From: an uncultured Planctomycetota bacterium
Lineage (GTDB): Bacteria > Planctomycetota > Planctomycetia > Isosphaerales > Isosphaeraceae
Assembly (NCBI GenBank): GCA_963823665.1
Contig: CAWGMQ010000011.1
Span: 160,001 to 224,000 of the forward strand
Direction of reading: 5' to 3'
Length of the DNA: 64,000 bases
Of this stretch, positions 1 through 51,397 are shown one piece after another; positions within the stretch are counted from its first letter, which is position 1, and the number at the start of each line of letters is the position of its first letter. The translations under genes were made by a program, and so were the position numbers. The notes under the pieces were generated by a model, which did not search any database, was not told the DNA's origin, and worked only from the letters and a program-made list of their open reading frames with translations.

Positions 1-739
1 GCTGGATTGTCGGGCTGCCAGAGGCGAAGGTCGTCCAGATCATCGGCACGGCGCGGGGATCCGTGATCTGATAGACTTCGCGCTGAGCCTTGAGCCTGCG
101 GGCCTCAATCGTGCTTTCCAGTGCGGCGCGTAGTTTTTCCAGTCGCGGTCTCCACTCCTTATCGGCGCGCTTCTGTCGATCGGCTTCGAGTTTCTGGACG
201 GCCAGGTCGTCGGGCTTGACCCAGCGATCGTGGTTTTTCTTGTAGCCGAGGCGGACCCACGCGATATCGCGGGAGGGGTCGAGGCGGGTGACCACGTTGT
301 AGTGAGCCATGGCCTCATCCTTGAGCCCCTTTTCCAGGCACCAGGCAGCGAGTCGCAACTGGGCGTCCGCGTTCTTCTGGGGTGTGCGAACGCGGCGATC
401 AAGGTATTCGCGAAAGACGGCCTGGAGCTCGGGATCCTCGTGGATTTCCTTCTCGACCTGGTCGGGTTTGGCCCATTTGCCTTGGAAGGCGATCAGGCCG
501 AGGAGCGCTCGGGCAAGCGCGTTTGAGGGGTCGAGAGACGACGCGATGGAGAGGTGCTTGATTCGCTCGGCGGAGAGGCCGTGGGTTTCGCACCAGAGGG
601 CGAGCTTCACGTGCGCGGCGGCGTTCTTGCCGGCGTTGGCGGCGGCAGTCTGATAGGCAGCGCGATCGGCGGGTGTCGCCTCGGCGAGCTTGCCGTCGTC
701 GCCCAACATGAGGAAGCAGAGCAGAATTGCTTGGACCAT
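1..739 (-). CDS. Hint-array paralogue 7 (5' part only, runs off window); TPR/HEAT-like N-terminal scaffold
   Basis: Not in the ORF track because it has no stop in the window. Manual translation from ATG at 739 gives MVQAILLCFLMLGDDGKLAEATPADRAAYQTAAANAGKNAAAHVKLALWCETHG...DPRAVPMIWTTF, colinear with the other six copies; GGAG RBS upstream. Confidence 0.9.
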   Translation of the reverse strand, partial: MVQAILLCFLMLGDDGKLAEATPADRAAYQTAAANAGKNAAAHVKLALWCETHGLSAERIKHLSIASSLDPSNALARALLGLIAFQGKWAKPDQVEKEIHEDPELQAVFREYLDRRVRTPQKNADAQLRLAAWCLEKGLKDEAMAHYNVVTRLDPSRDIAWVRLGYKKNHDRWVKPDDLAVQKLEADRQKRADKEWRPRLEKLRAALESTIEARRLKAQREVYQITDPRAVPMIWTTFASGSPTIQ

Positions 740-803
740 GATTTTCTCCAAAGGCGGGGCGATACTCGCGATTCTGAATATTGCACGTTGGCAATGAGGA
801 CAA

Positions 804-2717
804 CTACTTCTGCGCTGGCGGCGCCTCCGTTCGCTGGCGGTCGAATGGCTCGGTAACCGGGAGGACGAAGCTGAAATCGTGCACCAGCAGACCGGAGGAG
901 CCTACCAGGAAGTCACGGGCCTGGGCGACGTCCAGGTTATACACCTTCTGGGATGGGCCCGGCTCGATCGATTCAACTTTCACGACGCCGCAGATCATGC
1001 GGAGCCGATCGCCGACGCTCAAGTCGCGTGCCATGGTCCAGCCTTTGCCGGCCTTCCAGAAGCGGTGAATGCCGGTGGCGACGATGGTTTCGCCGCCTGC
1101 GGAAATTCGCAGCGTATCGGCGGGGCCATTCACGTGCGTGGCGAGCACGGGCTGGAACGAGAGGGCACCGGTTCCGGTGTCCTGCGAGAGGACGCGGTCG
1201 CCGAGGGCGATCGCCTCGATCTTGCGTGGGCCGGCGAAGGTCTGGACCAAGGTTCCGGCTCCGAAGCAGGCGTTGTGGGGAACCAGGATCGGAAACCCGA
1301 CGAAATCGGTAAACGTGGGCTTGTTCTCGGCATATCGGTCATCGATGACGACGCCCTGCTGGTCTGCCCACCACGTTTGCCAGGCCTGGGGATCAGCACC
1401 AAAACTCTGGCCGGTGAGCGATCGCAGGAGCGGCAGCACAGTGTCGTCGGTCTGTCTGATTTGCGCGTTGACCTGCTCGATCGTTTCGACGTCGCTTTCC
1501 AGTTTCTGCTGCACGATCTGATCGCGGCGAACGCTTTCCTGGAAGAGCGCCGTGGCGACTTGCTGTTGTGCCAGTGCGTGAGCCCGGCCGGAGATCGTCA
1601 TCACGGCCGCAGCGCCGTTGCCGGACTGACCGGCGGCGGGTGTGGGAGTGACCAGCATCGCATTCCAGGCAATTGTTGCGGGTGGGACCAAGCCAACCTC
1701 CACGTCGGGGAAACGATAGAAGCGCCGGATGTCGAACCGTTCGCCGTCGACGAAGAGGGCGCCGATCGATCCAGGGCCGGATCCCGGCCTGATTTCGTAT
1801 TTGAATGGCCGATGAATGGCGGCTACGAGCCAGCCGATCACGTCGCGGGGGTCGCGGTTCGTCAGGGCTTTGGCGGCGCGCGAGCGGACATCGGCCGAGG
1901 GCCTCTCGACGGCGAGCACGGCCAGTCCGAACGATGCCGCGGGCCCTTCGATCTGGGAGAGCAGCTCGACGGCGACGAGCTGCATCTTTTCACTGCCGTG
2001 GCCGAAGATCTTCCAGATCATCGGCAGCGCGCGGGGATCGGTTACCTGGTAGAGCTCGCGCTCGGCTTTCAACCGGCGCGTCTCGACCGGGCTTTCCATG
2101 GCTTCGTGCAGCTTCTCGAGTCTCGTCTTCCACTCTTTATCGGCGTGCTTCTGGCGCTCAGCTTCGAGCTTCTGGGCCGCGAGAACCTCGGGCTTTGACC
2201 AGCGGTCGAGGTGCTTCTTGTAGCCAAGGCGAATCCAGGCGATGTCTCGCGACGGATCGAGGCGGGTGACCAGATGGTAGTGGGCCATGGCCTCGTCCTT
2301 GAGTCCGTTTTCGAGGCACCAGGCGGCCAGGCGCAACTGGGCGTCGACGTTTTTTGGAGGTGTGCGCACGCGGCGATCGAGGTACTCGCGGACGAGGGCC
2401 TGGAGCTTGGGGTCGGCGTGGATTTCCTTCGCGACCTCGTCGGGTTTGGCCCATTTGCCCTGGAAGGCCATCAGGCCCAAGAGGGCGCGGGCCAGCGCAT
2501 TTGAAGGGTCGAGAGACGACGCGATGGTCAGGTGCTTGATTCGCTCCGAGGAAAGGGTGTGGGTTTCGCACCAGAGGGCGAGCTTCACGTGCGCGGCGGC
2601 GTTCTTGCCGGCCTTGGCGGCGGCCGTTTCGTAGGCGGCGCGATCGCTTGCAGCTCGCTCGGGGGGTTTGCCGCCGTCGGTGAGGATGGCACAACAGAGC
2701 AGGATGGCGTGGAGCAT
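804..2717 (-). CDS. Hint-array paralogue 6: TPR/HEAT-like scaffold + variable segments + C-terminal Hint (PT-HINT-like) domain
   Basis: ORF 804..2732; start placed at MLHAILL (2717) by homology. Hint motifs HNA|CFGAGTLV, TIVATGIHRFW, VYNLDV, LLVHD (Hint 876..1268). Confidence 0.9.
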   Translation of the reverse strand: MLHAILLCCAILTDGGKPPERAASDRAAYETAAAKAGKNAAAHVKLALWCETHTLSSERIKHLTIASSLDPSNALARALLGLMAFQGKWAKPDEVAKEIHADPKLQALVREYLDRRVRTPPKNVDAQLRLAAWCLENGLKDEAMAHYHLVTRLDPSRDIAWIRLGYKKHLDRWSKPEVLAAQKLEAERQKHADKEWKTRLEKLHEAMESPVETRRLKAERELYQVTDPRALPMIWKIFGHGSEKMQLVAVELLSQIEGPAASFGLAVLAVERPSADVRSRAAKALTNRDPRDVIGWLVAAIHRPFKYEIRPGSGPGSIGALFVDGERFDIRRFYRFPDVEVGLVPPATIAWNAMLVTPTPAAGQSGNGAAAVMTISGRAHALAQQQVATALFQESVRRDQIVQQKLESDVETIEQVNAQIRQTDDTVLPLLRSLTGQSFGADPQAWQTWWADQQGVVIDDRYAENKPTFTDFVGFPILVPHNACFGAGTLVQTFAGPRKIEAIALGDRVLSQDTGTGALSFQPVLATHVNGPADTLRISAGGETIVATGIHRFWKAGKGWTMARDLSVGDRLRMICGVVKVESIEPGPSQKVYNLDVAQARDFLVGSSGLLVHDFSFVLPVTEPFDRQRTEAPPAQK

Positions 2718-2747
2718 GGTTTTCTCCGGCACAATAATGCGGCGAGT

Positions 2748-4676
2748 TTACTTGGAGCCAACTGCCGCCGTGCTTGTCAGGCGGTCAAACGGTTCAGAAA
2801 CCGGGAGTACGAAACCGTAGTCGTGTACGAGCAGGCCGGCGGAGCCGACCATGAAGTCGCGGTTCTGTGCGACATCGAGGTTATACACCTTCTGGGATGG
2901 GCCGGGCTCGATTGATTCAATTGTCACGACGCCGCCGATCATGCGGAGGCGATCGCCGGCGCTCAAGTCGCGGGCCATGGTCCAGCCTTTGCCGGCTTTC
3001 CAGAATCGGTGGATGCCGGTGGCGACGATCGTTTCGCGACCTGCGGAAATACGAAGCGTCTCCGTGGGTCCATTCACGTGGGTAGCAAGCACGGGCTGGA
3101 ACGAAAGGGCACCGGTCGTTGTGTCCTCCGAGAGGATGCGGTCGCCGATGGCGATCGACTCGATCGTGCGCGGGCCGGCGAGTGTCTGAACCAATGTCCC
3201 GGCGGCGAAACAGGAATGGTGCGGAACGACGTCCGGCAGCGAGACGAAATCGGTGAACGTGGGCTTGTTCTGGGCCTGGGCATACCGGTCATCAACGACG
3301 ACGCCGAGCTGGTCTGCCCACCAAGTTTTCCACGCCTGCGGGTCGGCGCCAAAATTCTGGCCGGTGAGCGAACCGAGCAGCGGGAGCACGCGGTCGTTGG
3401 TCTGGTTGATCTGGGCATTCACGTCCTCGACCATCGCGACGTCGCTTTCGAGTTTCTGCCGCACCACCTGGTCGCGAGCGAAGGCTTCTTGCAACATTAT
3501 GGCGCCGAGCTGCTGCCGCCCAATTGCATAGGCCCTGCCCGACAGCGTCATCATGGTCGACACCTGCGACGCGCTCGAACCGGCCTGCGTGGTGACGGGA
3601 GCCGGGTTCAAAATCGGCAGGTTCGCGAGAACCTGAACCGGTGGCATCAATTGAGCCTCCACCTCCGGGAAGCGATAGAATCGCCGGATGTCAAATCGTT
3701 CGCCGTCCACAAGAAGCGATCCGGTCGATCCGGGGCCGGCTCCGGGCTTGATTTCGTACTTGAACGGCCGATGGATGGCGCTCACGAGCCAGCCAATGAC
3801 GTCTCGGGGATCGCGGTTCGTGAGGGCTTTGGCGGCACGCGAGCGGACGTCGGCCGACGTCCGTTCGAGCGCTAGCACGGCCAGTCCGAACGACGCCGCT
3901 GGCCCTTCGACCTGGGAGAGGAGCTCGACGGCGACGAGCTGCATCTTTTCACTGCCGTTGCCGAAGGTTTTGAAGATCATTGGAAGCGCTCGGGGATCGG
4001 TCACCTTGTAGAGCTCACGCTCGGCCTTCAGCCGCCGTGTCTCGATCGAGCTTTCCATGCCGTCGCGCAGCTTCTCGAGCCGCGGCTTCCACTCCTTATC
4101 GGCTAGTTTCTGGCGATCGGCTTCAAGCTTCTGGGCCGCGAGAACCTCGGGCTTTGACCAGCGGTCATGGTGCTTCGTGAATCCGAGCCGAAGCCAGGCG
4201 ACATCCCGAGAAGGGTCGAGTTGCGTCACGACGTGGTAGTGCGCCATCGCCTCGTCCTTGAGTCCGTTTTCGAGGCACCAGGCGGCGAGTCGCAACTGGG
4301 CGTCGACGTTTTTTTGAGGTGTGTGCACGCGGCGATCGAGGTACTCGCGGTAGAGGGTGTCAAACTTCGGGTCGGCGTGGATTTCCTTCTCAACCTGGTC
4401 GGGTTTGGCCCATTTGCCCTGGAAGGCCACCAAGCCCAAGAGGGCGCGGGCAAGCGCATTTGAAGGGTCGAGAGACGACGCAATGGTCAGGTGCTTGATT
4501 CGCTCTGAGGAAAGGCCGTGGGTTTCGCACCAGAGAGCGAGCTTGACGTGCGCGGCGGGGTTTTTGCCGGCTTTGGCGGCGGCCGCGTCGTAGGCGGCTC
4601 GATCGGCGGTGGTCGCCTCGGCGGGTTTTCCGCCGTCACCCACCAACACAAGGCAGAGCAGGATTGCGTGGAGCAT
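2748..4676 (-). CDS. Hint-array paralogue 5
   Basis: 642 aa; HHS|CFAAGTLV ... TGIHRFW ... VYNLDV ... LLVHD (Hint 2820..3212). Confidence 0.9.
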   Translation of the reverse strand: MLHAILLCLVLVGDGGKPAEATTADRAAYDAAAAKAGKNPAAHVKLALWCETHGLSSERIKHLTIASSLDPSNALARALLGLVAFQGKWAKPDQVEKEIHADPKFDTLYREYLDRRVHTPQKNVDAQLRLAAWCLENGLKDEAMAHYHVVTQLDPSRDVAWLRLGFTKHHDRWSKPEVLAAQKLEADRQKLADKEWKPRLEKLRDGMESSIETRRLKAERELYKVTDPRALPMIFKTFGNGSEKMQLVAVELLSQVEGPAASFGLAVLALERTSADVRSRAAKALTNRDPRDVIGWLVSAIHRPFKYEIKPGAGPGSTGSLLVDGERFDIRRFYRFPEVEAQLMPPVQVLANLPILNPAPVTTQAGSSASQVSTMMTLSGRAYAIGRQQLGAIMLQEAFARDQVVRQKLESDVAMVEDVNAQINQTNDRVLPLLGSLTGQNFGADPQAWKTWWADQLGVVVDDRYAQAQNKPTFTDFVSLPDVVPHHSCFAAGTLVQTLAGPRTIESIAIGDRILSEDTTTGALSFQPVLATHVNGPTETLRISAGRETIVATGIHRFWKAGKGWTMARDLSAGDRLRMIGGVVTIESIEPGPSQKVYNLDVAQNRDFMVGSAGLLVHDYGFVLPVSEPFDRLTSTAAVGSK

Positions 4677-4733
4677 TTGTTTCTCAGTTCGGCGTCTGAG
4701 GGTGGCCGCGAAGGTGACACGTTGGCGATGAGA

Positions 4734-6707
4734 TCACTTGGACGCCGCCGGCGCCACGATCGTTTGGCGGTCGAACGGTTCGGGCACCGGTAAAACGAAG
4801 CTGAAGTCGTGGACCAGCAGGCCGGCCGCGCCGACCAGGTAGTCGCGGTTTTCCGCGACGGTCAAGTTATAGACCATTTGTGTCGGGCCGGGCTCGATCG
4901 ATTCGATCGTGGTGGTGCCACCGATCATTCGGAGGCGGTCGCCGGCTTTCAGGTCGCGGGCCATGGTCCAGCCTTTGCCGGCTTTCCAGAAGCGGTGGAT
5001 GCCGGTGGCGACGATGGTTTCGCCGGCCTGCGTGATTCGCAATGTGGCCGATGGACCATTCAGGTGGGTGGCCAGAACCGGCTGGAACGACAGAGCGCCG
5101 GTGGATGTCTGCTGGGACAGGATGCGGTCGCCCACGGTCACCGATTCAATCTTTCGAGGGCCGGTGAGCGTCTGGACCAACGTTCCGGCAGCGAAGCATG
5201 CGCCATGCGGCTGGTGGACCGGTCCCCCGAATACGAGCAGAAAGATGTGGCGGTGCGCCGCACTCGCGCCGATGTCGGGCGGGTTGACCGAATCGACGCG
5301 GGTTGGTTTGGCACTGGGATAACGATCGTCATCGACATAACCGAGCAGATCCGTCCACCAACGCCGCCATGCCTCGGGATCGGCGCCCAGACTCTGCCCG
5401 GTGAGCGTTTCAAGGATAGGGAGCACGCGGTCGTTCAGTTGATCGATCTGCGTGTTCAAGTCCTGTATCATTCTGATGTCGTCCTCGAGCTTCTGCTGCA
5501 CGGAGGCGTTCGCTTGAAGCAACTGTCGGGTCGCGGTGGCGGTCGACATCTCCGGTTCCGGTCTGGCGGTTGCATTGTAATAGGCAAAGGATGTTGCCGT
5601 GTGACCGGCGCCCAAATCCTTGATGAGGACGTGGCCACCAGCGGCGGTGACAGTCGTGAGCTCGAACGCGGGAGGCGCCATGCGCGGATCGAAGGTGGGA
5701 AACCGGTAGAAACGTTTCAGGTCGAACTGCTCGCCGTCGACCTCGAGCGAGCCAGTCGAGCCCGAGCCTGTTCCCTGGTTGATCTTGTACTTGTAGGGCT
5801 TGTGAACCATGTAGATCAGCCGGCCAATCACGTCGCGCGGGTCGCGCTCGAGGAGAGCCTGCGCGGCACGTTTGCGCACGTCCGGTGAAGGTGAATCGAG
5901 AGCAAGCAGTGCAATACCGCTTGAAGCGGTCGGCCCCTCGATCTGGCTGAACAGCTCGACCGCGACGAGCTGGATCGTCTCGCTGCCATTGCAGAAGGTC
6001 CTCCAGATCATCGGCACGGCGCGGGGATCGGTGATCTGATAGACTTCGCGCTGGGCCTTGAGCCTGCGGGTCTCAATCGTGCTCTCGAGCGCGCCTCGTA
6101 GTTTTTCCAGTCGCGGCCGCCACTCCTTATCGGCGCGCTTCTGTCGTTCGGCTTCGAGTTTCTGGGCAGCCAGGTCGTCGGGCTTGACCCAGCGGTCGTG
6201 GGTTTTCTTAAAGCCGAGGCGGACCCACGCGATATCGCGCGAGGGGTCGAGGCGGGTGACCACGTTGTAGTGAACCATGGCCTCGTCCTTGAGTCCGTTT
6301 TCGAGGCACCAGGTGGCGAGTCGCAACTGGGCGTCGACGTTCTTCTGGGGTGTACGAACGCGGCGATCAAGGTATTCCCGGATCAGTGCCTGGAGCTTGC
6401 GGTCGTCGTGGATTTGCTTTTCGACCTGATCCGCTTTGGCCCATTTGCCCTGGAAGGCCATCTGGCCCAGGAGGCCGCGGGCGAGGACGTTCGAGGGGTC
6501 GAGGGTCGATGCGATGGTCAGATGCTTGGCTCGCTCGGAGGAGAGACCGTGAGTTTCGCACCACAGGGCAAGCTTGACGTGCGCGGCGGCGTTCTTGCCG
6601 GCCTTGGCGGCGGAAGCCTCGTAGGCGGCTCGATCGCCGGCGCTTGAATCCGCGGGTTTGCCGCCGTCGGCGAGCAAGGCGACGCAGAGCAGGATGACAT
6701 GGACCAT
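4734..6707 (-). CDS. Hint-array paralogue 4
   Basis: ORF 4734..6722, start at MVHVILL (6707); HGA|CFAAGTLV ... LLVHD (Hint 4806..5198); longest pre-Hint linker. Confidence 0.9.
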   Translation of the reverse strand: MVHVILLCVALLADGGKPADSSAGDRAAYEASAAKAGKNAAAHVKLALWCETHGLSSERAKHLTIASTLDPSNVLARGLLGQMAFQGKWAKADQVEKQIHDDRKLQALIREYLDRRVRTPQKNVDAQLRLATWCLENGLKDEAMVHYNVVTRLDPSRDIAWVRLGFKKTHDRWVKPDDLAAQKLEAERQKRADKEWRPRLEKLRGALESTIETRRLKAQREVYQITDPRAVPMIWRTFCNGSETIQLVAVELFSQIEGPTASSGIALLALDSPSPDVRKRAAQALLERDPRDVIGRLIYMVHKPYKYKINQGTGSGSTGSLEVDGEQFDLKRFYRFPTFDPRMAPPAFELTTVTAAGGHVLIKDLGAGHTATSFAYYNATARPEPEMSTATATRQLLQANASVQQKLEDDIRMIQDLNTQIDQLNDRVLPILETLTGQSLGADPEAWRRWWTDLLGYVDDDRYPSAKPTRVDSVNPPDIGASAAHRHIFLLVFGGPVHQPHGACFAAGTLVQTLTGPRKIESVTVGDRILSQQTSTGALSFQPVLATHLNGPSATLRITQAGETIVATGIHRFWKAGKGWTMARDLKAGDRLRMIGGTTTIESIEPGPTQMVYNLTVAENRDYLVGAAGLLVHDFSFVLPVPEPFDRQTIVAPAASK

Positions 6708-6737
6708 GATTTTCTCCCGCACGCTTGCGCGGCGAGC

Positions 6738-8619
6738 TCATCTGGAAGCAATGGGTGCAGCGTTTGTGACGCGGTCAAACGGCTCGGAAACCGGTTGCAC
6801 GAAGCTGAAGTCGTGCACGAGCAGGCCGGCGCTGCCGACCAGGAAGTCGCGGTTCTCGGCGACCGTCAGGTTATAGACCTTCTGGGTCGGTCCGGGCTCG
6901 ATTGACTGAATGGATACGATTCCGCCAATCATGCGCAGGCGATCGCCGGATTTCAGGTCGCGGGCCATGGTCCAGCCGTTGCCGGCCTTCCAGAAGCGGT
7001 GGATGCCGGTGGCGACGATGGTTTCGCTGCCGAGCGCGATTCGCAGTGTTTGGGACGGGCCGTTCAGATGGGTGGCGAAAACGGGCTGGAACGACAGTGC
7101 GCCGGTTGAAGATTGCTGAGACAGGACGCGGTCGCCGGCGGCGATGGATTCGATCTTGCGCGGGCCTGTGACGGTTTGAACCAGGGTCCCGGCGGCGAAG
7201 CAGGCCGTGTGCGGAACGATCACCTCTGTGAAGAGGGGCTTATCCTCGGAATAGCGCGAGTCGTAGACATAGCCTAGCTGCTCGGTCCACCACTTCTTCC
7301 ACTGTTCGGGGTCGACGCCGAAGTTCTGGTTGGTGAGCGACTCGAGCAGGGGCAGGGTGCGCTCATTCGTCTGGGTGATCTCGGCGTTCCATTTCTCCAG
7401 GTCGCGAACGTCGTCTTCGATCCGACGCTGGGTCAGCTCCGCCACTTGCTGAGAGCGCACAGACGGTTCCGGAAAATAGGAGGTGCCCGGGAAGGCGCTC
7501 GTGAGCATTTGACCGGCGGATCTCGCAGAACCGGTATGTCCGACGTTTGCGCTGGCCTGCTGCATCCCGGATGTAAAATTCAGGACTGGAACGAGCCGCA
7601 AGTCGAGGGGAGGAGGTTCATAAAACCGCTCGAGGTCGAATCGTTCTCCATTAACCTTCAGCAAGGCAGGCGTGCCCGGACCTTGCTCCTGCGTTAGCTC
7701 GTATTGATACGGCTTGTGGATGACGGTGACCAACCAGCCTATGATGTTGCGCGGATCGCGGCGTGCCAGGGCGCGCCTCGCCTGGTCGCGGATCGCAGGC
7801 GACGGCCTCTTGATTGCCAGTGCGGCGATCCAGAACGATGCCGCCGGTCCTTCGATCTGCGAGAGCAGTTCAACGGCGACCACCTGACTTTGCTCGCTTC
7901 CATTTCCCAGGATCATGGCAATCAGCGGGACGGCGGGGGTCGTTCACTTGATAGACCTCTCGTTCCGCCTTCAGCCGCCGTGCCTCGATCTTGCTCTCGA
8001 GTCCGTCGCGCAGTTTCTCGAGACGCGACTTCCACTGTACGTCGGCGCGTTTCTGGCGGTCGGCTTCGAGCTTCTGCGCGGCCAGGTCTTCAGGCTTCTG
8101 CCAGCGATCCTTGTGCTTCTTGTAGCCGAGGCGTATCCAGGCAATGTCGCGGGCGGGGTCCAAGCGCGTCACCAGATAGTAGTGAGCCATCGCCTCTTCA
8201 TTGAGCCCGTGTTCGAGGCACCAATTCGCGAGCCGCAACTGGGCGTCAGCCTTGTTCCGGGGAGCCTGCACGCGGCGCTCGAGGTATTCCCGGAGCCGGG
8301 CCTGGAACTTGGGGTCGTTCTGGATGTCCTGCTCGACCTGGTTGGGTTTCGCCCATTTTCCCTGGAACGGCACCAGCCCCAGCAAGCCTCGCGCCTGAGT
8401 ATTCGGGGGGTCGAGAGCGACGGCGAGCGTCAGATGCTTGGCTCGCTCGGCCGTGAAGCCGTGCGCCTCGCACCAGAGCGCGAGCTGGACGTGCGCGGCG
8501 GCGTTCTTGCCGGCCTTTGCGGCGGCAGCCTCGTAGGCGGAACGATCGGCAGCGTTAGATTCGGCGGGCTTGCTGCCGCCGTCGAGCATGGCACAACAGA
8601 GCAGGATCGCGTGGAGCAT
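6738..8619 (-). CDS. Hint-array paralogue 3 (one frameshift at ~7935, probably a sequencing error)
   Basis: ORFs 7870..8619 and 6738..7916 join into a full copy; 2 nt are missing relative to copy 1 (cggcgggggtcg vs cggcgcgagggtcg). Hint 6810..7202. Confidence 0.85.
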
Positions 8620-8651
8620 GGTTTTCCTTCCGCACAGATAGCGCGGCGGGC

Positions 8652-10589
8652 TTACTTGGAAGCAATCGGCGCAGTGTTCGTCAGGCGGTCAAATGGTTCG
8701 GAAACCGGGAGCACGAAACCGTAGTCGTGTACCAGCAAGCCGGCGGAGCCGACCAAGAAGTCGCGGTTCTCAGCGACGTTCAATTTAAAGACCATTTGGG
8801 TGGCACCTGGCTCGATCGAGTCGATGATGGCGACACCGCCCAGCATGCGGAGGCGATCGCCGGCTTTCAGGTCGCGCGCCATGGTCCAGCCCTTGCCGGC
8901 CGTCCAGAAGCGGTGGATGCCGGTGGCGATGATGGTTTCGCCGGCGAGCGAGATCCGGAACGTTTCGGCGGGACCGTTCAAGTGTGTGGCCAGAACGGGC
9001 TGGAAGGAAAGCACGCCCAAGGTTGTGTGTTGCGAAAGGACGCGGTCGCCGACGGCGATCGATTCGATCTTTCGCGGGCCGCCCAACGTTTGGACCAAGG
9101 TTCCCGAAGCGAAACACGCATGATGCAAGAATACGTTCACATTAACGATGGGGAGTTGTACGGTCAGATCTGGTGCAGTCACGACTTCGGAAAAGGACAG
9201 CTTACCGTCGGAATCACTGTCGTAATTGACGTATCCGAGCTGGTCAGTCCACCAATTTCGCCACGCGTCGGGATTAATGCCGAGCTTCTGGCCGGTTCGC
9301 GATTCCAGGATCGGCAGCAATCGCGCATTGGATTCATCGATTCGCGCATTGACCTCGTCGATCGCGCGAGCGTCATCGTAAACAGCTCGCTGCATCTCGC
9401 CCACTTGCTGCAGGTTCGCGACCGTTGCTTGCGCGAGGATTGCGGATTGCCTCCGCAAGGAGGCAGCTTGGATCGCCGAGGCCTCGGCGATCATCTGGGT
9501 CGCCTGCTGCGGGGTGGCGTCGGGTTGGGGAACCATCAGCACGATGTGGCTCACGGGAACCAGGCGAACGTCGAGGTCCGGGAAACGATAGAGTCGTTGG
9601 AGATCGAACCGTTCTCCGTCGACAAAGAGCGTGCCGGTTGATCCGGGATTCGCTCCGGGCCTGACTTCGTACTTGAAGGGTTTGTGAAGCCGGTTTATCA
9701 TCCAGCCGATGACATCGCGAGGATCGCGGTGTGCGATCGCCTGGGCGGTTCGCGCGCGGATGGCGCTCGAGGGATTGTCGATCGCCATTAACGGCAGGCA
9801 GAACGATGCCCCAGGGCCCTCGATCTGGGTGAACAGCTCGACCGCGACGAGCTGCATCTTTTCGCTGCCGCTGGCAAACGTTCTCCACATCGCCGGCACA
9901 GCGTGAGGGTCGGTAATTTGGTAAAGTTCCTTCTCGGCCTTCAGCGGCCGTGTCGCGACCGAGCTTTCCAGGGCATCGCGCAGCTTCTCGAGCCGGGATT
10001 TCCGGTGCATATCAGCACGCTTCTGGCGATCGGCTTCGAGCTTCTGGGCAGCCAGGTCGTCGGGCTTGACCCAGCGGTCGCGGTGTTTCTTGTAGCCCAG
10101 GCGCAGCCAGGCGATATCCCGGGACGGGTCGAGCCCGGTCACCACGTGGTAGTGAGCCAGGGCCTCGTCCTTGAGCCCGTTTTCGAGGCACCAGGCAGCC
10201 AGCCGCAACTGGGCGTCAGCATTTTTCGAGGGAGTGCGCACCCGTCGCTCGAGGTACTCACGAAAGAGAGCAAGCAGCTTGGGATCGTCGTCCAGGTCGT
10301 GCTTGACCTGTTCGGGCTTGGCCCATTTTCCCTGGAAGGTGACCAGGCCCAGAAGGCCCCGGGCCAAGGCATTTGCCGGGTCGAGCGAGAGAGCCAGGTT
10401 GAGATGCTTCACTCGCTCGGACGTGAGTCGATGCGCTTCGCACCAGAGAGCGAGCTGCACTTGCGCGGGGGCGTTCTTGCCGGCCTTGGCGGCGGCGGTT
10501 TCGTAGGCGGCTCGATCGCTGGCGTTTGATTCGGCGGGCTTGCTGCCGCCGGCGAACAGGGCACAAGAGAGCAGGATTGCGTGGAGCAT
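8652..10589 (-). CDS. Hint-array paralogue 2
   Basis: 645 aa; HHA|CFASGTLV ... TGIHRFW ... VFKLNV ... LLVHD (Hint 8724..9116). Confidence 0.9.
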   Translation of the reverse strand: MLHAILLSCALFAGGSKPAESNASDRAAYETAAAKAGKNAPAQVQLALWCEAHRLTSERVKHLNLALSLDPANALARGLLGLVTFQGKWAKPEQVKHDLDDDPKLLALFREYLERRVRTPSKNADAQLRLAAWCLENGLKDEALAHYHVVTGLDPSRDIAWLRLGYKKHRDRWVKPDDLAAQKLEADRQKRADMHRKSRLEKLRDALESSVATRPLKAEKELYQITDPHAVPAMWRTFASGSEKMQLVAVELFTQIEGPGASFCLPLMAIDNPSSAIRARTAQAIAHRDPRDVIGWMINRLHKPFKYEVRPGANPGSTGTLFVDGERFDLQRLYRFPDLDVRLVPVSHIVLMVPQPDATPQQATQMIAEASAIQAASLRRQSAILAQATVANLQQVGEMQRAVYDDARAIDEVNARIDESNARLLPILESRTGQKLGINPDAWRNWWTDQLGYVNYDSDSDGKLSFSEVVTAPDLTVQLPIVNVNVFLHHACFASGTLVQTLGGPRKIESIAVGDRVLSQHTTLGVLSFQPVLATHLNGPAETFRISLAGETIIATGIHRFWTAGKGWTMARDLKAGDRLRMLGGVAIIDSIEPGATQMVFKLNVAENRDFLVGSAGLLVHDYGFVLPVSEPFDRLTNTAPIASK

Positions 10590-10622
10590 CGTTTTCCTCT
10601 CTCCCGCACGATGGCGACGAGG

Positions 10623-12518
10623 TCACCTGGGCGTTGCCGGCGTTGTGTTGGTTTGGCGATCGAATGGCTCGGAAACCGGTTGCACGAAGCTGAAGTCGTG
10701 CACGAGCAGGCCGGCGCTGCCGACCAGGAAGTCGCGGTTCTCGGCGACCGTCAGGTTATAGACCTTCTGGGTCGGTCCGGGCTCGATTGACTGAATGGAC
10801 ACGATTCCGCCAATCATGCGCAGGCGATCGCCGGATTTCAGGTCGCGGGCCATTGTCCAGCCCTTGCCGGCCTTCCAGAAGCGGTGGATGCCGGTGGCGA
10901 CTATGGTTTCGCTGCCGAACGCGATTCGCAGTGTTTGGGACGGGCCGTTCAGATGGGTGGCGAGAACGGGCTGGAATGACAGTGCGCCGGTTGAAGATTG
11001 CTGAGACAGGACGCGGTCGCCGACGACGATGGATTCGATCTTGCGCGGGCCTGTGATCGTTTGAACCAGGGTTCCGGCGGCGAAGCAGGCCGTGTGCGGA
11101 ACCGGAGCGATCATCTCCATGAAGACGGGCTTAGGCTCGGAAGAGCGCGAGTCGAAGACATAGCCTAGCTGCTCGGTCCACCACTTCTTCCATTGTTCGG
11201 GGTCGAGGCCGAAGTTCTGATTGGTGAGCGACTCGAGCAGTGGCAGGACGCGCTCATTCGTCTGGTTGATCTGGGCGTTCCGTTCCTCCAGGTCGCGAAC
11301 GTCGTCTTCGATCCGACGCTGGGTTAGCTCCGCCGATTCCTGAGAGCGCAGAGTCGGTTCCGTGACGTAGGAGGCGCCGTGGTAGGCGCTCGTGAGCATT
11401 TGACCGGCGAAACTCCCAGAACCGGTATAACCGCCGTGTGCGCTGACATGCTGCATCCCGGATGTAAAATTCAGGACTGGAACGAGCCGGAAGTCGACGG
11501 CAGCAGGTTCGTAAAACCGCTCGAGGTCGAATCGTTCTCCGTTAACCTTCATGAAGGCAGGGGTGCCCGGACCTTGCTCCTGCGTTAGCTCGTATTTATA
11601 CGGCTTGTGGATGACAGTGACCAACCATCCTATGATGTCGCGCGGATCGCGGCGTGCCAGGGCTCGCCTCGCCTGGTCGCGGATCGCAGGCGACGGCTTG
11701 TTGATTGCCATTGCGGCGAGCCAGAACGATGCCGTCGGTCCTTCGATCTGCGAGAGCAGCTCAACGGCGACGACCTGACTTTGCACGTTTCCATTCCCCA
11801 GGATCCTGGCAATCAGCGGGACGGCGCGAGGGTCGTTCACTTGATAGACCTCTCGTTCCGCCTTCAGCCGCCGTGCCTCGATCTTGCTCTCGAGTCCGTC
11901 GCGCAGTTTCTCGAGACGCGATTTCCACTGTTCGTCGGCGCGTTTCTGGCGGTCGGCTTCGAGCTTCTGCGCGGCCAGGTCTTCAGGCTTGAACCAGCGA
12001 TCCCTGTGCTTTTTATAGCCGAGGCGTATCCAGGCAATGTCGCGGGAGGGGTCGAGGCGCGTCACCAGATAGTAATGAGCCATCGCCTCTTCATTGAGGC
12101 CCTGTTCGAGGCACCAATTCGCGAGCCGCAACTGGGCGTCAGCCTTGTTCTGGGGAACCTGCACGCGGCGCTCGAGGTATTCCCGGAGCCGGGCCTGGAA
12201 CTTGGGGTCGTTCTGGATGTCCTGCTCGACCTGGTTGGGTTTCGCCCATTTTCCCTGGAACGGCACCAGCCCCAGCAAGCCTCGCGCCTGAGTATTCGGG
12301 GGGTCGAGAGCGACGGCGAGCGTCAGATGCTTGGCTCGCTCGGCCGGGAAGCCGTGCGCCTCGCACCACAGGGCGAGCTGAACCTGATCCGCGGCGTTTT
12401 TCCCCGCCTTGGCTACGGCGGCTTGGTAGGCGAGGCGATCGGTTGCAGTTGGCTCTGGCTCGGCGGTCTTGCCGCCGTCTGCAAACATGGCACAACAGAG
12501 CAGGATGGCGCGGACCAT
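10623..12518 (-). CDS. Hint-array paralogue 1 (first gene of the array)
   Basis: 631 aa; GGAGG RBS; HTA|CFAAGTLV ... LLVHD (Hint 10695..11087). Confidence 0.9.
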   Translation of the reverse strand: MVRAILLCCAMFADGGKTAEPEPTATDRLAYQAAVAKAGKNAADQVQLALWCEAHGFPAERAKHLTLAVALDPPNTQARGLLGLVPFQGKWAKPNQVEQDIQNDPKFQARLREYLERRVQVPQNKADAQLRLANWCLEQGLNEEAMAHYYLVTRLDPSRDIAWIRLGYKKHRDRWFKPEDLAAQKLEADRQKRADEQWKSRLEKLRDGLESKIEARRLKAEREVYQVNDPRAVPLIARILGNGNVQSQVVAVELLSQIEGPTASFWLAAMAINKPSPAIRDQARRALARRDPRDIIGWLVTVIHKPYKYELTQEQGPGTPAFMKVNGERFDLERFYEPAAVDFRLVPVLNFTSGMQHVSAHGGYTGSGSFAGQMLTSAYHGASYVTEPTLRSQESAELTQRRIEDDVRDLEERNAQINQTNERVLPLLESLTNQNFGLDPEQWKKWWTEQLGYVFDSRSSEPKPVFMEMIAPVPHTACFAAGTLVQTITGPRKIESIVVGDRVLSQQSSTGALSFQPVLATHLNGPSQTLRIAFGSETIVATGIHRFWKAGKGWTMARDLKSGDRLRMIGGIVSIQSIEPGPTQKVYNLTVAENRDFLVGSAGLLVHDFSFVQPVSEPFDRQTNTTPATPR

Positions 12519-13949: not shown

Positions 13950-16900
13950 ATGAAGCCGATTTTGTTGCTATTGGTGTGCGGCGTGAGTATGAGCTCCGGA
14001 GGCGCCGGGGCCGCTTCGCTCGACGACGATGCATTGGTGATCACGCCGCCCGGGTTTAACCGTCCGGGAGTGGCGCGGACGGCGCCACCAGAAGGGAGTG
14101 CGCGGCTCAAGATCACCGTGCGAGACCGCGCGACCAACCAAATTACTCCGTGCAGGATCAACGTCGTTGGGCCTGACGGCGACTTCTATCAACCGGCGCC
14201 GAACCGCCTGGCGCCGTACAGCCTCACCGGGCAGTGGCCCGAGACGGGCAAGGGAAATCGCTCGGGCAAGGGGCCGTTTCGATATCTCGGCCGGTTCTTC
14301 TACACAACCGGAGAAAGCGAGGTGGGCGTTCCCGCGGGGCGAGCGCGCATCGAAGTCTGGAAGGGACTGGAGTATCAGCCGATCGAGCGAGATGTCAGGA
14401 CGAGAGCCGGAGAGACCATTTCCGTGTCGCTGGAGCTCGAGCGCGTCAGGTCCATGGCCGCCCTGGGCTACCACTCGGGAGACCTGCACCTGCATTTTCC
14501 GCGGAAGGACGATGCCGACGATCAGACCATCCTTGACCTGCTCGACGCCGAGGACATCGAATACGGGGCCATTCTGGCGTACAACGAGCCGCCGGGTCCA
14601 TACGAAGGCCTGATGGCAACGATGGCCTCGCCCCAGCTTCGGGGCCTGGGAGATCGTTCGGAGCGGCGTCGCGGCCGGACCAGGATCACTTCGGGCCAGG
14701 AATACCGCAGCACGACCTATGGGCATCTGAACCTGTATTCGCGTGATGACCTGGTGCTCGCGGGCCGGAAGGCAAACGCCGACAACTGGCCGCTCTACGG
14801 AGATCTCAGCCGCGAAACGATGCGACGGGGCGGATACGCAATCTACGCGCACGGGGGATACGCACAGGCGATCTATGCAGACTTCGCGCAAAAGCACGCG
14901 AGCGCCGTCGAGCTACTTCAGTTCGGAGTGTATCGCGGAATTGAGCTGGCGGGTTGGTACGATATGCTGAACATCGGCTATCGATTTCCTTGCGTTGGGG
15001 CCAGCGACTATCCCGCCTGCCGCAAGCTCGGCGACTGCCAAACGTATGTGTGGCTCGATGGTCACGGCGATTTTGGCGGGTGGCTTCGCGGTATTGCGAG
15101 CGGGCGCAGCTTCGTCACGAACGGGCCGCTGCTGTTGCTCGAGTTGGAGGGCAGTCGGCCCGGCGGGGTGATCCGGTTGAGCGGAACCGGGCCGCACATG
15201 CTGAAAGTGAACGTTCGCGCAATCAGCCATGTCGCGCCGGTGCAGATAGTGCAGATCGTGGCCGGGGGCAAGGTTGTCGCGGAGCAGAAGGTCCCCCCGG
15301 ACGCGCGACAAGACCACTGGATCGAGTTCGAGCGCGCGGTCGAGCTGCACGAATCGTCGTGGATTGCGGCCAGGGCCTTCGGCGTAGCTCGTTCTGGTGG
15401 GCCAGATGCGGAAGCGCATACGAATCCTGTCTACGTCGACATCGGAGAGAAGGCGCCGTTTAACCGAGACTCGCTCGATCGCGTGCTCGGGCATCTCGAC
15501 GAACAGATGGCGATCCACCGCAAGCGAAACTTCGCCGAGAAGGCCCGCGTGCTGGATGATTTTCAGAAGTCACGCGACATCTTGTTGCGGATCCGGCAGG
15601 CCGGCGGGCTGGCTAGCGGCGGCGTTCCGGATGAGTGGATCAACGACAAGTCGTCTGCGGCGATCGACCCCAGCCGGCGCGCGCACGGCGAGGACGAGCT
15701 GAGTGAGTTTCTGCAACCGCTGCCGGCAACGCCGCTGCCTGAAGCAGTCAAGACTTTCGAGTGCGTCGATGGTTTTACGATGCAGCCCGTGGCGGCCGAG
15801 CCGCTTGTGCAAAGCCCGGTTGCGGCGGCTTTCGACGCCGACGGCAACCTTTACGTCGCCGAGATGCGCGATTATCCGTACAAGCCGAAGCCAGGGGGCA
15901 AGCCGCTGGGCACGGTGCGGCTGTTGCGCGACCGCGATGGCGACGGCCGCTTTGAAACCAGCCACGTCTTTGCCGACGGCTTGCTCTGGGCCGCGGGCAT
16001 TGCGCCGTGGAAGGGCGGTGTGTTTGTGACGGCACCGCCCGACATCTGGTATTTGAAGGATAGTGACGGCGATGGGAAAGCCGACGTGCGTCAGTTGATT
16101 TACACCGGCTTCGGCACACAGAACCAGCAGTCGATGGCGAACAACCTGACCTGGGGTCTGGACCACTGGATCTACGGCGCCGCGGCAGGGAATGGTGGGA
16201 CGATCCGGAACGTTCGCGACGATCGCAAGAACTCGGTCTCGGTCGAACACAACGACTTTCGGTTCGACCCGATCACAACCAGCTTCGAGCCGATCAGCGG
16301 GTCGGATCAGTTCGGCAACACGTTCGACGACTGGGGCAACCGGTTCATCTGCGATGAGTCTCATCCGCTGTCGCACCCGGTCTTGCCTCTCCATGTTCTG
16401 GCGCGCAACCCGTATCTGGCGGTGCCCTCGGTTGTGCAGGACATCGCGGGGGGTTCGGTGCCGATTTTCCGGATCAGCCCGATCGAGCGCTGGCGGCAGA
16501 TCCGCTCGAGCCGCCGCATTGCGCACGGCACCCGATCTGCGGAATCAGCCGGGGCCAGCCATCACGTCGTCGACGCCGGCGCAGGCGTGACGATCTACCG
16601 CGGAACTGCCTACCCGGCTGAATTCTATGGGAACGCGTTTGTAGGTGACGCCCAGAACAATCTCGTCCATCGACGGATCCTGGTGCCGGACGGTCCGACA
16701 TTCAAGTCGATTCGCGGCGCGCGTGAGACGGCCACCGAGTTTGTGCGCTCGCCGGACAACTGGTTTCGCCCCGTGAATTTCGTGAACGCGCCCGACGGCA
16801 CGCTGTACGTGCTGGATATGAGTCGCGCGGTCATCGAGGCGATTCATATTCCGCTCGACGTGGTCAAGCACTTGAACCTCAAGCGCGGGAGAGACCAGGG

Positions 16901-18714
16901 CCGTATCTACCGTATTGCCCCTCCCGGGTTCCGATTCATCCCACCGCCTCGATTGAGCCGGGCGACGACGGCCGAGCTTGTGGCGGCCCTGGGACGCAAG
17001 GATGGCTGGTATCGCGATACAGCCCATCGCCTGCTCTATGAACGCCAGGACCGGGCCGCGATCAACCCGCTGCGAGCGATGCTTGACGTCAAAGAGGCGC
17101 CACTGCCCCAGACGCGGGTGAACGCACTCTGGTCGCTTGAAGGGTTGGGAGCACTTGCTGATGACGATATTCTCAGTGGATTGAATGATCGCGCGGCGGA
17201 AGTGCGTGCGCAGGCCGTGAAGCTCGCCGCGCCTCGACTGGGTCGATCGCCGGAGGTGCTTGCGAAGGTGCTCGAGCTGGCCGACGATTCCGAGGTTACC
17301 GTGCGCTTCCAGACGGCGCTTGCGATCGGCGCGAGCGGTGATGCGCGGGTCGAGCCCACGCTCTTGCGGATCGCGCGGCGGGACGCCGCCAACCACTGGA
17401 TGCGCTCTGCGGTGCTTTGCTCGGGACTCGAGACGGCCGCGAGGATGCTGGTTGATCTCTGGGGTGTTCAGGAGGCCGATCGGCGGCGGGGCGCGGATGC
17501 CGGCGCGCTGCGGTTGTTGCTCGACGAGCTGGCTCGAATCGTCGGAGCGCGCAACGACCGCGTGGAAATCGATCGCGTTCTCGACCGGCTTGCGACAACG
17601 GCGCACGCGACAGAGAGGCGTGAGCTGCGCGATGAGTTGATCCTGGTGCTCGCTCGCGGCGCCCGAGGAGCGGGCGGCCGGCTTCACTCGGGAGCCGGCG
17701 CGACGAATTCCGGCGCGGATGGTGGCGGAGTTGATCGAGGAGACCCGGACAGCCGTGCGCGACGAGCATTCCCCAGAGGCGATTCGCGCGGCGGCGATTG
17801 CCCGATTGGTGACACTCGAACCGGTCTTGTCGGGAGTGGATCTTGGGAAACTGCTCGAGCCTCGAGAGCCATTGGCAGTGCAGCTTGCCGTGGTCCGAGC
17901 GGTCTCTGACAGCGATTCTGCGGAAGTCGTGCAGCTTCTGCTGCCCCGGATGCGCGGGTTCGAGCCGGTCGTTCGCACGGCTGCGGTGCAGACGTTGCTT
18001 TCCCGCGCGGCCTGGACCAGGGCGCTGCTGGAAGCCATGAGCCGCGACGATGGGCGGAACGGTTTGAGCACGGGCTTGATCGAGCCTGCCGACCGCGGGA
18101 GGCTGCTCAAGCACAGGGACGTCCAGATCGCGGGACTCGCAAAGAAGCTCTTTTCGCAGAGCGCGGCGGATTCGCGCGCGGGGGTGATTCTTGACTATGC
18201 GACGGCGATTCGCTCGGGAGGAGATCGCGGCCGCGGGGCCAAGGTGTTCGAGCGGGAATGCAAGGCGTGTCACAAGATCGGCGAGCAGGGATTTGCGCTG
18301 GGGCCTGACCTCACAGGCTCGCCGTCGCGCGATCCCGCGGCGCTGCTTGCCAATATTCTCGATCCGAATGCCAGTGTGCCGCCCAAGGACGTGCAGTATG
18401 TGGTAGTCGATCAGAACGGCAGGACATACTCCGGGATCATTGCGGCCCAGACGGCGACGGGCTTGACGCTCGAGCGCGGCGAGGGAGCCCGGGATACGAT
18501 TCTCCGCAGCCAGGTTTCCGAGCTTGCCAGCACGGGGTTATCATTGATGCCCGAGGGATTCGAGAAGCGAGTTTCGAAGGCTGAGATGGCGGATCTCGTC
18601 GCCTTTCTGTGCGCGACACACCGTGGCGGAGACAGCAGCGACGGCGTTGCCGATCAAGACTCGCGTCCGCTCGATGTCGGAACTTTGCCGGGACTGATCG
18701 AGCCGGACGAGTGA
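13950..18714 (+). CDS. CehA/McbA-like (PHP-type) metallohydrolase fused to PVC-type heme-binding CxxCH protein; frameshift ~17712
   Basis: N-half GDLHLHF, GQEYR..YGHLN, YAHGG, GASDY; then the typical PVC dehydrogenase-like start (F.CVDGFTMQPVAAEPLVQSPVAAAFD), HEAT repeats, and in ORF 17719..18714 CKACH, GPDLT, SLMPEG. Confidence 0.8.
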
Positions 18715-23255: not shown

Positions 23256-23464
23256 TCGGGTCGACCTCCCTGCGCCGCCGGTTTTTGTGCGCTCGTTCTG
23301 CTCGGGGCCAACGATCCATTATCCAGTGGTCGGGTTATCTGGTCCAGTGACTGAGGGAGACGTCCGTGCAAATCGCATGCCTTGTGGCAGGGCCGCGCGG
23401 CGGATAGTCTCAACCAAGCGGGTCCTTGCAAACTTCGTTGACCGGTTCTCGAAGGAGGCGGAGG

Positions 23465-26400: not shown

Positions 26401-27005
26401 AGAGCGAGGCGTATGCGTGGCTCGCGATGGCTGTGGCCCCTCGCGACAAGGCGCGGGCGGCGATGCTCATCGAGAGGGCACTCAACCTGCCGGTCGATCA
26501 CTCGCAAGAATTCCGCGGTTGGGTCTATTTCGGCGGCGGTGCGGGCGAGGCCGCCTGGACGTCGGCGTGCGCGAAGCGGGCGGGGTACGACGACATGGCC
26601 TCTGCGGTCTTCCGCGTGCTGGCGGCGCGGCCATCGGACCGGAACGGCGATCCGTCGACGGAGGTGGAATGTCAGACCAATGCGGCGGCGATCCTGGCGC
26701 TCACCGACCCGAAGGCGGCGAGCCAGATGCTGCGCGACCTGGAGCTGCGGTGGGGCCAGCGGCTGGGAGAGCTGGGGCGGCTTGCAGGCCGGCGCTGGCT
26801 CATGGCCTGGGCGTTGGCCGATCCATCGCACGCCGAGCAGCTTTTCGAGGCCGAGCTGGCCGCGCTCGAGAGCCGGCCCAACGCGAACGTGCAGTCGACC
26901 GGCATGTTCAAGATGGTTGAGATTCTGGTGCAGCCGCCCAAGCGCCGCGAGGAATTTCTCCGTCGAGAGATCAGCGCGACATGGTATCCGGGGATTGATG
27001 AGTGA
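23465..27005 (+). CDS. Large secreted protein with carboxypeptidase-regulatory-like beta-sandwich repeats and helical C-terminal region (frameshift ~26010)
   Basis: Signal peptide; repeated GRVVD..G.PVAGA.V and TD..G.F motifs; continues in ORF 25980..27005. Confidence 0.75.
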
Positions 27006-50500: not shown

Positions 50501-51397
50501 CGACCCGCCGCCGCCCCCCTGATTTAGTGCATCTGACCCAGCCCCGCCACCGCCCCCCGAATAACCGCCACCGCCGCCGCCGCCGCCGTAACTAGCATCC
50601 TCCCCGCCGCCGCCACCACCGCCGAAGCCGCCACTGCCGATGCCGCCACCGTCGATGATGACCACGTTGGTGCTGGCCCCATCGCCGCCACGAAAGGACG
50701 GTGCGCCAGAGCCCGAGCTCCCGGCTCCCACCGGGGGAAATTCAGGTCCTCCTCCACCTGAGAACCACCCGCCCCCACCGCCACCCTCGCCGGTTCCCTC
50801 GGGGTCGCCGCCGCCGGGAAAGCCGCCCGAGCCGTCGACCCCGCCCTGTCCAAAAGAGTAGAAGGGATTGGCTACAGCCTCTGCATCGGCACCCCCGTTT
50901 ACTCCGGTCTGCGCGTTGCCACCGGTGCCACCGGCACCGCCGCCGCCACCACCGGCAGCGATCAAAGGTTGGCTTGCGGGTTGGCCGTCACTGGTTTGGA
51001 ACACAAAGCTGCCGCCGCCCCCTCCTCCACTCAACAGGCCCAAACTACCTTGGCCGCCTACCAAAACGTCCAGCGTCGTTCCCGCAGTCAGCAGGACATT
51101 GCCGCTCAGCACGGCGCCCAGGCCGCCTGGAGCGCCGACATATCCCTCGCCTGGTACATATGCGTCGGGGCTGCTGCTGCCTCCCTGCGCCCCATCCACT
51201 GTGATCTCATAAACCCCCGTCCGAGGCACGGTATAGGTCTGGATCGCTCCGGTGTAGGCGAAGCCCGTCAGCATCAGCCGCGGCTCCATCGCCTCGATCG
51301 CAACCCTCGCGGCTTGTTGTCGACGACGGCTGGACTTCGGCCGACCCTGCGACCCACCAACGACTTTGCGGCGACGATTGAATGGAAGTGGCTTCAA
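41588..51397 (-). CDS. Giant secreted multidomain surface protein (~3,270 aa; frameshifts ~44925 and ~44475)
   Basis: Probable TTG start with GGGAG RBS; basic N-terminus and MEPRLML motif; Gly-rich domain; Ig-like repeats; split PI-PLC-like domain; ~75-aa repeats; choice-of-anchor-Q-like NPLLASLGNNGGPTPT...DQRG; GNGN nonamer RTX-like repeats; C-terminal GRDWFF. ORFs 44816..51574, 44451..44819 and 41588..44569 join. Confidence 0.8.

Follow-up and report, generated by a model that had tools for sequence, protein, structure and literature searches.

To our knowledge, the natural substrates of most bacterial Hint domains outside inteins are not known. In polymorphic toxins of the PT-HINT type, the Hint domain lies ahead of a C-terminal toxin whose gene is followed by an immunity gene (PMC3113570, PMC3482391), and in Hedgehog proteins a thioester transfers the N-terminal domain to an adduct (PMC5874633, PMC7765530). 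A Hint at the C-terminus of secreted bacterial proteins has also been noted earlier (PMC2362128), and C-type bacterial intein-like (BIL) domains with PPS-1 are mentioned in PMC9185962; statements attributed here to published work refer to the excerpts of each source that were available. We analyzed a stretch of 64,000 nucleotides (the window; assembly GCA_963823665.1, contig CAWGMQ010000011.1, positions 160,001 to 224,000) from a soil planctomycete in which nine genes for exported proteins of one Hint-bearing family lie side by side. We favour, with moderate confidence, the reading that these are exported scaffolds with paralogue-specific arms and Hedgehog-like N-terminal autoprocessing, the scaffold being the product that is either freed or joined to an acceptor. 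The export, the fold and the residue pattern in this reading rest on computed results, and we infer cleavage, acceptor, recognition and function.

The open reading frames (ORFs) of seven paralogues occupy window positions 1-12518, all on the minus strand. They are unit 1 (10623-12518, 631 aa, Hint Cys1 codon at 11087 and terminal Asp ending at 10695), unit 2 (8652-10589, 645 aa, Hint 9116-8724), unit 3 (6738-8619, Hint 7202-6810), unit 4 (4734-6707, 657 aa, Hint 5198-4806), unit 5 (2748-4676, 642 aa, the reference unit for modelling), unit 6 (804-2717, 637 aa, Hint 1268-876) and the 5' part of unit 7 (1-739; 654 aa in full). A search of the source genome (G000; C8 and C11 are its contigs, L-numbers denote loci and P-numbers representative proteins) showed that the array runs past the window edge to a total of nine co-oriented units over 17.7 kb (G000:C11:154841-172518), with the continuation of units 7-9 at G000:C11:154841-160739 (L011:13841-19739). 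The original prediction, made from the sequence alone, of at least seven co-oriented tandem paralogues with gaps of 30-64 bp was therefore correct: consecutive units are separated by 33, 32, 30, 57, 30 and 64 bp. Spacers of this length are too short for an intervening gene and make co-transcription of the array probable; a promoter and terminator scan gave counts at chance level (2 versus 1.7 and 17 versus 13.5).

Each unit consists of a leader, TPR-like repeats, HEAT repeats, an arm containing a paralogue-specific segment (V1), a variable linker (V2), the Hint and a 23-residue tail. In unit 5 (minus strand), a short hydrophobic leader, a putative signal peptide, is encoded at 4605-4676 (residues 1-24), followed by two TPR-like repeats (residues 25-190) and HEAT-like repeats (residues 191-300) at 3777-4604. 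The arm (3297-3776) comprises a sheet (residues 306-335), V1 (335-404; 3465-3674), a long helix (370-438) and a WxxWW cap (446-457). Cleavage by the Hint at Cys1 would leave V2 (3213-3296, residues 461-488) at the C-terminus; the Hint (2820-3212, residues 489-619) and the tail with its PFD motif (2748-2819) complete the protein. The AlphaFold2 model of unit 5, based on 150 sequences, has a predicted local distance difference test score (pLDDT) of 90.6 and a predicted TM-score of 0.73. It shows two TPR-like repeats, HEAT-like repeats, the sheet as three strands, a low-confidence loop at about 341-370, the long segment as a single helix, the cap and, after a strand at 473-478, the Hint. PF07591 scored above the cut-off in 6/6 in-window Hint ORFs (45-61 bits versus 27.7), a check proposed with the original prediction, and in all nine array units. 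The Pfam matches for TPR and HEAT are weak, and NCBIfam gave no name above cut-off to three sigma-free Hint-family proteins or one Hint-less protein. The two LAxWC repeats, the WxxWW motif, the variable segment and the linker described at first are all present in the unit alignment, and the tail, put at about 20 aa, is 23 residues after the last Asp of the Hint in 6/6.

A scaffold-only profile retrieved 1615 representatives at E<=1e-30, of which we inspected the best 150. The N-terminal 10-residue hydropathy is at least 2.0 in 138 of these 150 rows, in agreement with the export and short hydrophobic leader first claimed; a lipobox-like pattern occurs in nine, and a membrane-type segment within the mature part in one. 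Judged from hydropathy and from the sigma-factor fusions described below, the family proteins are putatively exported. The arm folded alone with a pLDDT of 87.7. Against 48,161 PDB chains its best Z was 5.1, and Foldseek found no match at E<=0.001 in PDB or BFVD, which does not in itself prove a new fold. Covariation between sheet and helix (Y307-E417, I309-V413, Y334-D412) supports packing of the long helix on the sheet within one chain. A homodimer prediction of residues 175-635 scored 0.00 and carries no weight either way. In each TPR-like repeat, a conserved Cys is separated by 12 residues from a conserved His (C50/H62 and C134/H146, 95-98%; window 4107-4604, within unit 5 residues 25-190), possibly forming a metal site. 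An unrelated membrane protein in the window (27042-28955, minus strand) ends in the identical cap, G-x-x-W-x-x-D-P-x-x-W-x-x-W-W, and the motif is therefore a general planctomycete module.

The Hint of unit 5 aligned to the BIL structure 2LWY with Z 22.1 (root-mean-square deviation 1.3 Å over 134 residues, 32% identity) and to Hedgehog 1AT0 with Z 18.6 (14% identity). We took the roles of positions B7, B10, F4, F13 and G7 from PMC4031507, where Cys1, Thr/Ser-B7 and His-B10 drive the N-terminal acyl shift. Unit 5 has Cys1, Thr-B7, His-B10, Asn-F4, an Arg at F13 and a His-Asp end. Among the 150 rows, Cys1, Thr/Ser-B7 and His-B10 are each conserved at 99%, the penultimate His at 97% and the terminal Asp at 100%, giving an end of His-Asp, not His-Asn, a feature that the original prediction had not mentioned; the terminal Asp aligns to the terminal Asn of 2LWY. 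In the 118 complete Hints drawn from the 150 representatives (mutual identity under 50%), Cys1 is found in 116, the terminal Asp in 118, and none has Cys, Ser or Thr at +1. His at F13 is present in 60 of 293 ungapped rows, with Arg in all array units, and the residue before Cys1 is Ser or Ala in 90% of the 150 rows. The post-Hint tail spans 8-79 aa in the complete representatives (median 24), and its residues F630 and D631 are conserved at 99%. Covariation links tail positions 623 and 626 to A552, T553 and I555 of block B (ranks 7, 9, 14 and 19) in a set of 320 sequences whose relatedness is only partly corrected by weighting. We read the PFD tail as part of the fold and as a lid that is predicted to cover the active site of the Hint. 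The proteins of one subgroup (L017:6239-8065, minus strand; L035; P0264) have a single TPR-like repeat; a second Cys lies upstream of their Hint, and their tail has no PFD.

In the mechanism that we propose, the leader would carry the protein into the periplasm or onto the surface, and the TPR/HEAT base would bear the long helical arm, with V1 as a separate binding surface in each paralogue. Cys1, Thr/Ser-B7 and His-B10 would then promote an N-to-S acyl shift that turns the C-terminal residue of the scaffold, usually Ser or Ala, into a thioester. Splicing and C-terminal release would be disfavoured because Asp replaces the cyclising Asn, there is no +1 nucleophile and the F13 His is mostly lost; the conserved tail would stay as a lid. 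An outside nucleophile would resolve the thioester, either water, leaving a free scaffold C-terminus, or an amine or hydroxyl of an envelope component or bound target, giving covalent attachment. In a reversal of the PT-HINT toxin scheme, the product would be the scaffold on the N-terminal side. We consider N-terminal cleavage at Cys1 likely; if it occurs, transfer to an acceptor rather than to water has a little less than an even chance. Of the Hint-processed repertoire first proposed, the N-terminal Hint residues are intact, and the chemistry would now be narrowed to an N-terminal, Hedgehog-like one with the scaffold as product.

The family resembles PT-HINT polymorphic toxins in Hint sequence type, export, tandem polymorphic paralogues and a lineage-specific conserved N-terminal region, but differs from those described in the available text by its conserved 23-residue tail, His-Asp end, internal variation and lack of an immunity gene. 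With neither a toxin domain nor an adjacent immunity gene, it is not a PT-HINT toxin by definition. Its proteins are labelled in databases as 'polymorphic toxin-type HINT' or hypothetical, and the former label is contradicted by their anatomy. Two other PT-HINT genes of G000 (L018:15073-17030 and L020:6266-9133; one RHS-like, one split) have the toxin-type pattern of a His-Asn followed by a C-terminal domain of about 120 residues. Features shared with Hedgehog and Hog proteins, as far as the excerpts describe them, are a secreted N-terminal domain, a C-terminal Hint with Cys1 and the block B Thr and His, a conserved post-Hint segment, and expanded families with varied N-termini (PMC2362128, PMC5874633, PMC7765530). 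However, the family is bacterial, its Hint is nearer to 2LWY than to 1AT0, and its post-Hint segment has only about 12 conserved residues; the predicted tail lid is comparable in position to the Hedgehog adduct-recognition region. By analogy, the family would work most like Hog proteins.

Like A-type BILs (2LWY), the family has the Hint fold, a penultimate His and no +1 nucleophile, but its terminal residue is Asp rather than Asn, the F13 His is mostly lost, and the Hint has a fixed position within one conserved family and a conserved tail that is a predicted lid. The His-Asn by which A-type BILs are recognized is replaced by an Asp end in 150/150 rows, and the +1 Cys, Ser or Thr of class 1 inteins is found in 0/118, with Ser or Thr at +2 in 90% of rows. 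The secreted bacterial proteins noted earlier (PMC2362128), taken together with the C-type BILs, share the signal peptide, N-terminal domain and terminal Hint, and the kind is therefore already known. Those listed come from myxobacteria and gammaproteobacteria or from predatory bacteria and are set apart by description, the available text making no mention of a TPR/HEAT/arm scaffold. The family is likewise not described in the available parts of PMC7738311 and PMC3417536. Our literature search, with subscription papers and supplements outside its scope, found no description of the scaffold, the His-Asp and lid subtype, the Hint-less clade or the arrays. Thioester 'harpoon' proteins, such as complement C3/alpha-2-macroglobulin and the Gram-positive thioester-domain (TED) adhesins, use an internal Cys-Gln thioester. 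The likeness to these, a thioester for covalent binding of a target, is one of analogy only, and the thioester of the family would be Hint-made and C-terminal.

The constant scaffold with a variable segment that had been predicted is evident among the eight intact units, where mean identity is 0.77 in the TPR region and 0.76 in the Hint compared with 0.15 in V1 and 0.28 in V2. A close relative carries an eight-unit array (L042) that shares four orthologue pairs with the G000 array, and both arrays hold their own lineage-specific duplicates. Between orthologues, V1 identity is 52-72%. Pooled over the four pairs (Nei-Gojobori), dN/dS is 0.81 in V1 (95% confidence interval 0.57-1.20), 0.50 for V2 and 0.13-0.30 for the scaffold; the Hint, at 0.21, is under purifying selection. 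V1 thus appears to be under relaxed or partly positive selection, with an interval that includes 1. The term hypervariable, used at first, is apt for the 15% V1 identity between paralogues, but not for orthologues, and positive selection is not demonstrated. Unit 8 is a mosaic whose first 100 mature codons are 91-95% identical to unit 5 and whose remainder is of another lineage. Unit 2 and its closest L042 unit share their ends (TPR 83-91% and Hint 91-93% nucleotide identity) but not their centre (core 60-75%). These comparisons of sequence show birth-and-death evolution with recombination between units. V1 length ranges from 30 to 201 aa across the family. Its apparent coupling to V2 length (raw rho 0.50 in 107 representatives and 0.79 in 108 Hint-less rows) was rejected because independent pairs were concordant in only 35/65 and 7/12.

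The same scaffold is also encoded by four tandem genes of the source genome (L018:6668-12211, G000:C8) that have a single TPR-like repeat and lack a Hint. They end in a beta-strand followed by Asp-Gly or Asp-Asn, and their downstream spacers are near-identical. A search with one of them gave 302 hits, with a Hint in 0 of the 120 listed. Among the matches listed, the penultimate residue is Asp in 108 of 110 full-length rows, and the residue after it is Ser in 50, Thr in 29 and Gly in 14. The residues at this end (S, T, G, H and N) resemble aspartimide-prone ones. In a tree whose root rests on a single long-branched outgroup, 17 of the 19 rows without a Hint group in a single clade nested in Hint-bearing rows (support 0.998), and the scaffold can therefore exist without the Hint. 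The Hint-less proteins stop about where cleavage at Cys1 would end the scaffold; covariation among them is too shallow to place the terminal strand (effective number of sequences 67). A more distant Hint-less relative (L019:6642-8030, G000:C11), with TPR, HEAT, a variable loop, the same WxxW cap and a different N-terminal domain, is a possible ancestral scaffold type.

In six of the 150 representatives (P0181, P0186, P0234, P0252, P0254 and P0269), one of them partial, an extracytoplasmic function (ECF) sigma domain and a hydrophobic segment stand ahead of the scaffold-Hint module in one chain. This order would place the scaffold outside the cytoplasm, and the fusions fit a sensing role. The text examined of PMC7826278 gives no architecture of planctomycete ECF fusions.

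Relatives of the family were found in 16/18 Isosphaeraceae genomes and 1/12 genomes from other families of the class, and 334 of 359 candidate stretches in a scan of species genomes were confirmed. The 50 retained loci all bear Planctomycetota titles, and many are Isosphaeraceae; among them are Singulisphaera acidiphila, Singulisphaera sp. GP187, Aquisphaera insulae and Paludisphaera soli. Tandem pairs occur in 23/50 loci (some loci overlap). Of 53 adjacent pairs, 44 leave at most 231 nt from Hint end to next TPR start, tail and leader included, and 51 lie within 554 nt. An array is also present in G001, of the same genus as G000, next to the same upstream hydrolase gene. The search for similar arrays in planctomycetes, suggested with the original prediction, thus revealed an Isosphaeraceae-wide family rather than a one-off locus. 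In a phylum-wide search of 200 genomes at E<=1e-25, with 8 candidates scored in each, G021 was the only genome to give a match, and the query alignment already contained its sequence.

Across 81 loci and the first 22 kb of the window, no immunity, transporter, acceptor or partner gene is conserved nearby. This agrees with the initial claim that toxin and immunity genes are absent, as do the 23-aa tail, the spacers and the lack of a conserved small neighbour. Neighbourhood clustering gave one syntenic site in 13-14 genomes, where a divergent secreted gene pair (L051:1-2040 and L064:4203-6586, minus strand) lies beside the family gene and the neighbours are, we assume from their motifs, hflX/truB-like. 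Because this site differs from the context in the window, we claim no dedicated partner. None of the results bears directly on the adhesion, kin-recognition or phage-decoy roles first suggested; a PADLOC scan of 4 proteins returned only two weak HEAT-region matches (E 6e-4).

The number of complete copies in the window has to be corrected from the predicted six to five intact ones (631-657 aa), since unit 3 is split and unit 7 is cut by the window edge. Unit 3, a recent duplicate of unit 1, lacks 2 nt of the unit 1 sequence near 7935 and so consists of two ORFs, of 249 and 392 aa. The probable cause is an indel in the assembly, as three other genes in the window (13950-18714, 23426-27005 and 52410-55422) look split likewise, suggesting assembly indel errors; none of the public contigs examined spans the break. 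Across the 50 loci, frame changes affect 10/28 control genes and 44/69 family genes in one assembly series, and 0/10 and 2/26, respectively, in the remaining assemblies. The array itself is not an assembly artefact, a possibility raised at the outset: its copies are only 61-78% identical to each other, and zero-mismatch public contigs cover the unit 4/unit 5 junction (X1, 4623-4857) and the unit 5/unit 6 junction (X2, 2576-2832). X1 is possibly the source of the window itself; X2 is listed under another study. Further paralogues lie on four other contigs of G000, and 17 of its 20 PF07591 matches belong to the array family by position. Homologues above 1177 aa (2 hits) are head-to-tail doubles of the family unit, probably read-through or assembly errors.

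Several observations weigh against N-terminal autoprocessing with the scaffold as product. Position F4 is Asn in 98% of rows, and in inteins it is most commonly Asp (PMC4031507). The reading does not account for the invariant terminal Asp, and Asp-ending inteins exist that can cyclise their Asp (same source). The wider family ends in H-D-N-[S/T] (N in 60% and S/T in 90% of the 150 rows), which could allow a shifted splice junction; the array clade has F, Y or V at that place, which does not allow it. For the arms, dN/dS in V1 is not above 1, relaxed constraint explains V1 as well as recognition does, and the V1-V2 length coupling failed the independent-pairs test. The absence of a conserved dedicated partner, transporter or acceptor gene nearby also counts here. 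Finally, the terminal octamer of the Hint-less proteins scores 0.7 against the last strand of the Hint and -6.1 against the pre-Cys peptide, a difference driven by the Asp, and this end may have been left over from an internal deletion instead of mimicking the cleaved terminus. An extension of the favoured reading, which we consider doubtful, is a repertoire of covalent harpoons. In it, the variable arm would select a target, and the C-terminal Hint thioester would staple the scaffold either to it or to the envelope. The invariant penultimate Asp would bring the Hint-less clade to a similar outcome, and the ECF fusions would turn capture into a transcriptional signal.

The same proteins could instead be structural envelope or fibre subunits in which the Hint is a cleavable cap, hydrolysis unmasks a C-terminal strand for strand-donation assembly, and the paralogues are interchangeable or ordered subunits. 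We think this unlikely. The beta-rich terminal strand of the Hint-less clade (beta-former fractions 0.88 and 0.85 at -5 and -4), the long helical arm of the model, the probable co-transcription and the tandem arrangement of the four Hint-less genes are consistent with it, but in Hint-bearing rows the peptide before Cys1 is beta-rich to a moderate degree only (0.13-0.48), the sheet-helix covariation fits a monomeric fold, and ECF fusions are hard to square with a polymer subunit. Chemistry like that of A-type BILs, with the Asp or the next Asn cyclising and the tail either joined to the scaffold or liberated as a conserved peptide, would agree with 2LWY as the nearest structure, the conserved His and Asp at the Hint end and the strong conservation of the PFD tail; type A BILs ligate via the freed amine, and inteins ending in Asp have precedent (PMC4031507). 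Yet the family lacks His-Asn, mostly lacks the F13 His and has tail residues that covary with block B as a component of the fold, and its Hint-less relatives do not end in PFD. We hold this explanation to be slightly less probable than fibre subunits.

A comparably low probability attaches to redundancy, that is, to tandem-duplicated paralogues with a relaxed loop in which the Hint works and V1 has no recognition role. The V1 dN/dS with its interval, the wide range of V1 length, the 16.5 Mb size of G000 and the lineage-specific duplicates in both compared arrays would be expected from it. It accounts poorly for distinct V1 types kept as orthologues in two genomes (4 pairs), for the recurrence of tandem pairs among loci and for recombination that exchanges the centre and keeps the ends. 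Least probable, and by some way, is an unconventional antagonism in which the freed N-terminal scaffold is the toxic part. A PT-HINT-type Hint, export and tandem polymorphism would suit such a role, but Pfam, NCBIfam and PDB searches found no catalytic or toxin domain, a membrane-spanning-type segment is nearly absent from the mature part, the gaps between most adjacent pairs are short, and the two other G000 PT-HINTs have the toxin-type His-Asn and C-terminal domain.

The family is a large set of proteins whose Hint is of a His-Asp subtype with an apparent lid on its active site, and its Hint-less clade provides a natural control. Because cultured Singulisphaera, Aquisphaera and Paludisphaera carry it, the question of what the Hint attaches the scaffold to is directly testable. 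If an acceptor is confirmed, it would represent a new protein modification of planctomycete envelopes and possibly a ligation tool.

Some other genes in the window and at related loci are worth recording. In Singulisphaera acidiphila, three genes lie just downstream of the family gene (L085:7001-9019) on the opposite strand (L085:9097-15943, minus strand); from their motifs we take them to be reverse-transcriptase-like, SWIM/WGR-like and long HEAT-repeat genes. They form a possible defence operon, which was not seen as a conserved neighbour of the family. The gene pair after unit 9 is presumably DUF1553/DUF1501-like. A 2252-aa protein encoded at window 44816-51574 (minus strand) combines a glycine-rich region, a long Ala/Asp-rich stretch and tandem beta repeats with what we assume, from a motif, to be a PI-PLC-like segment.

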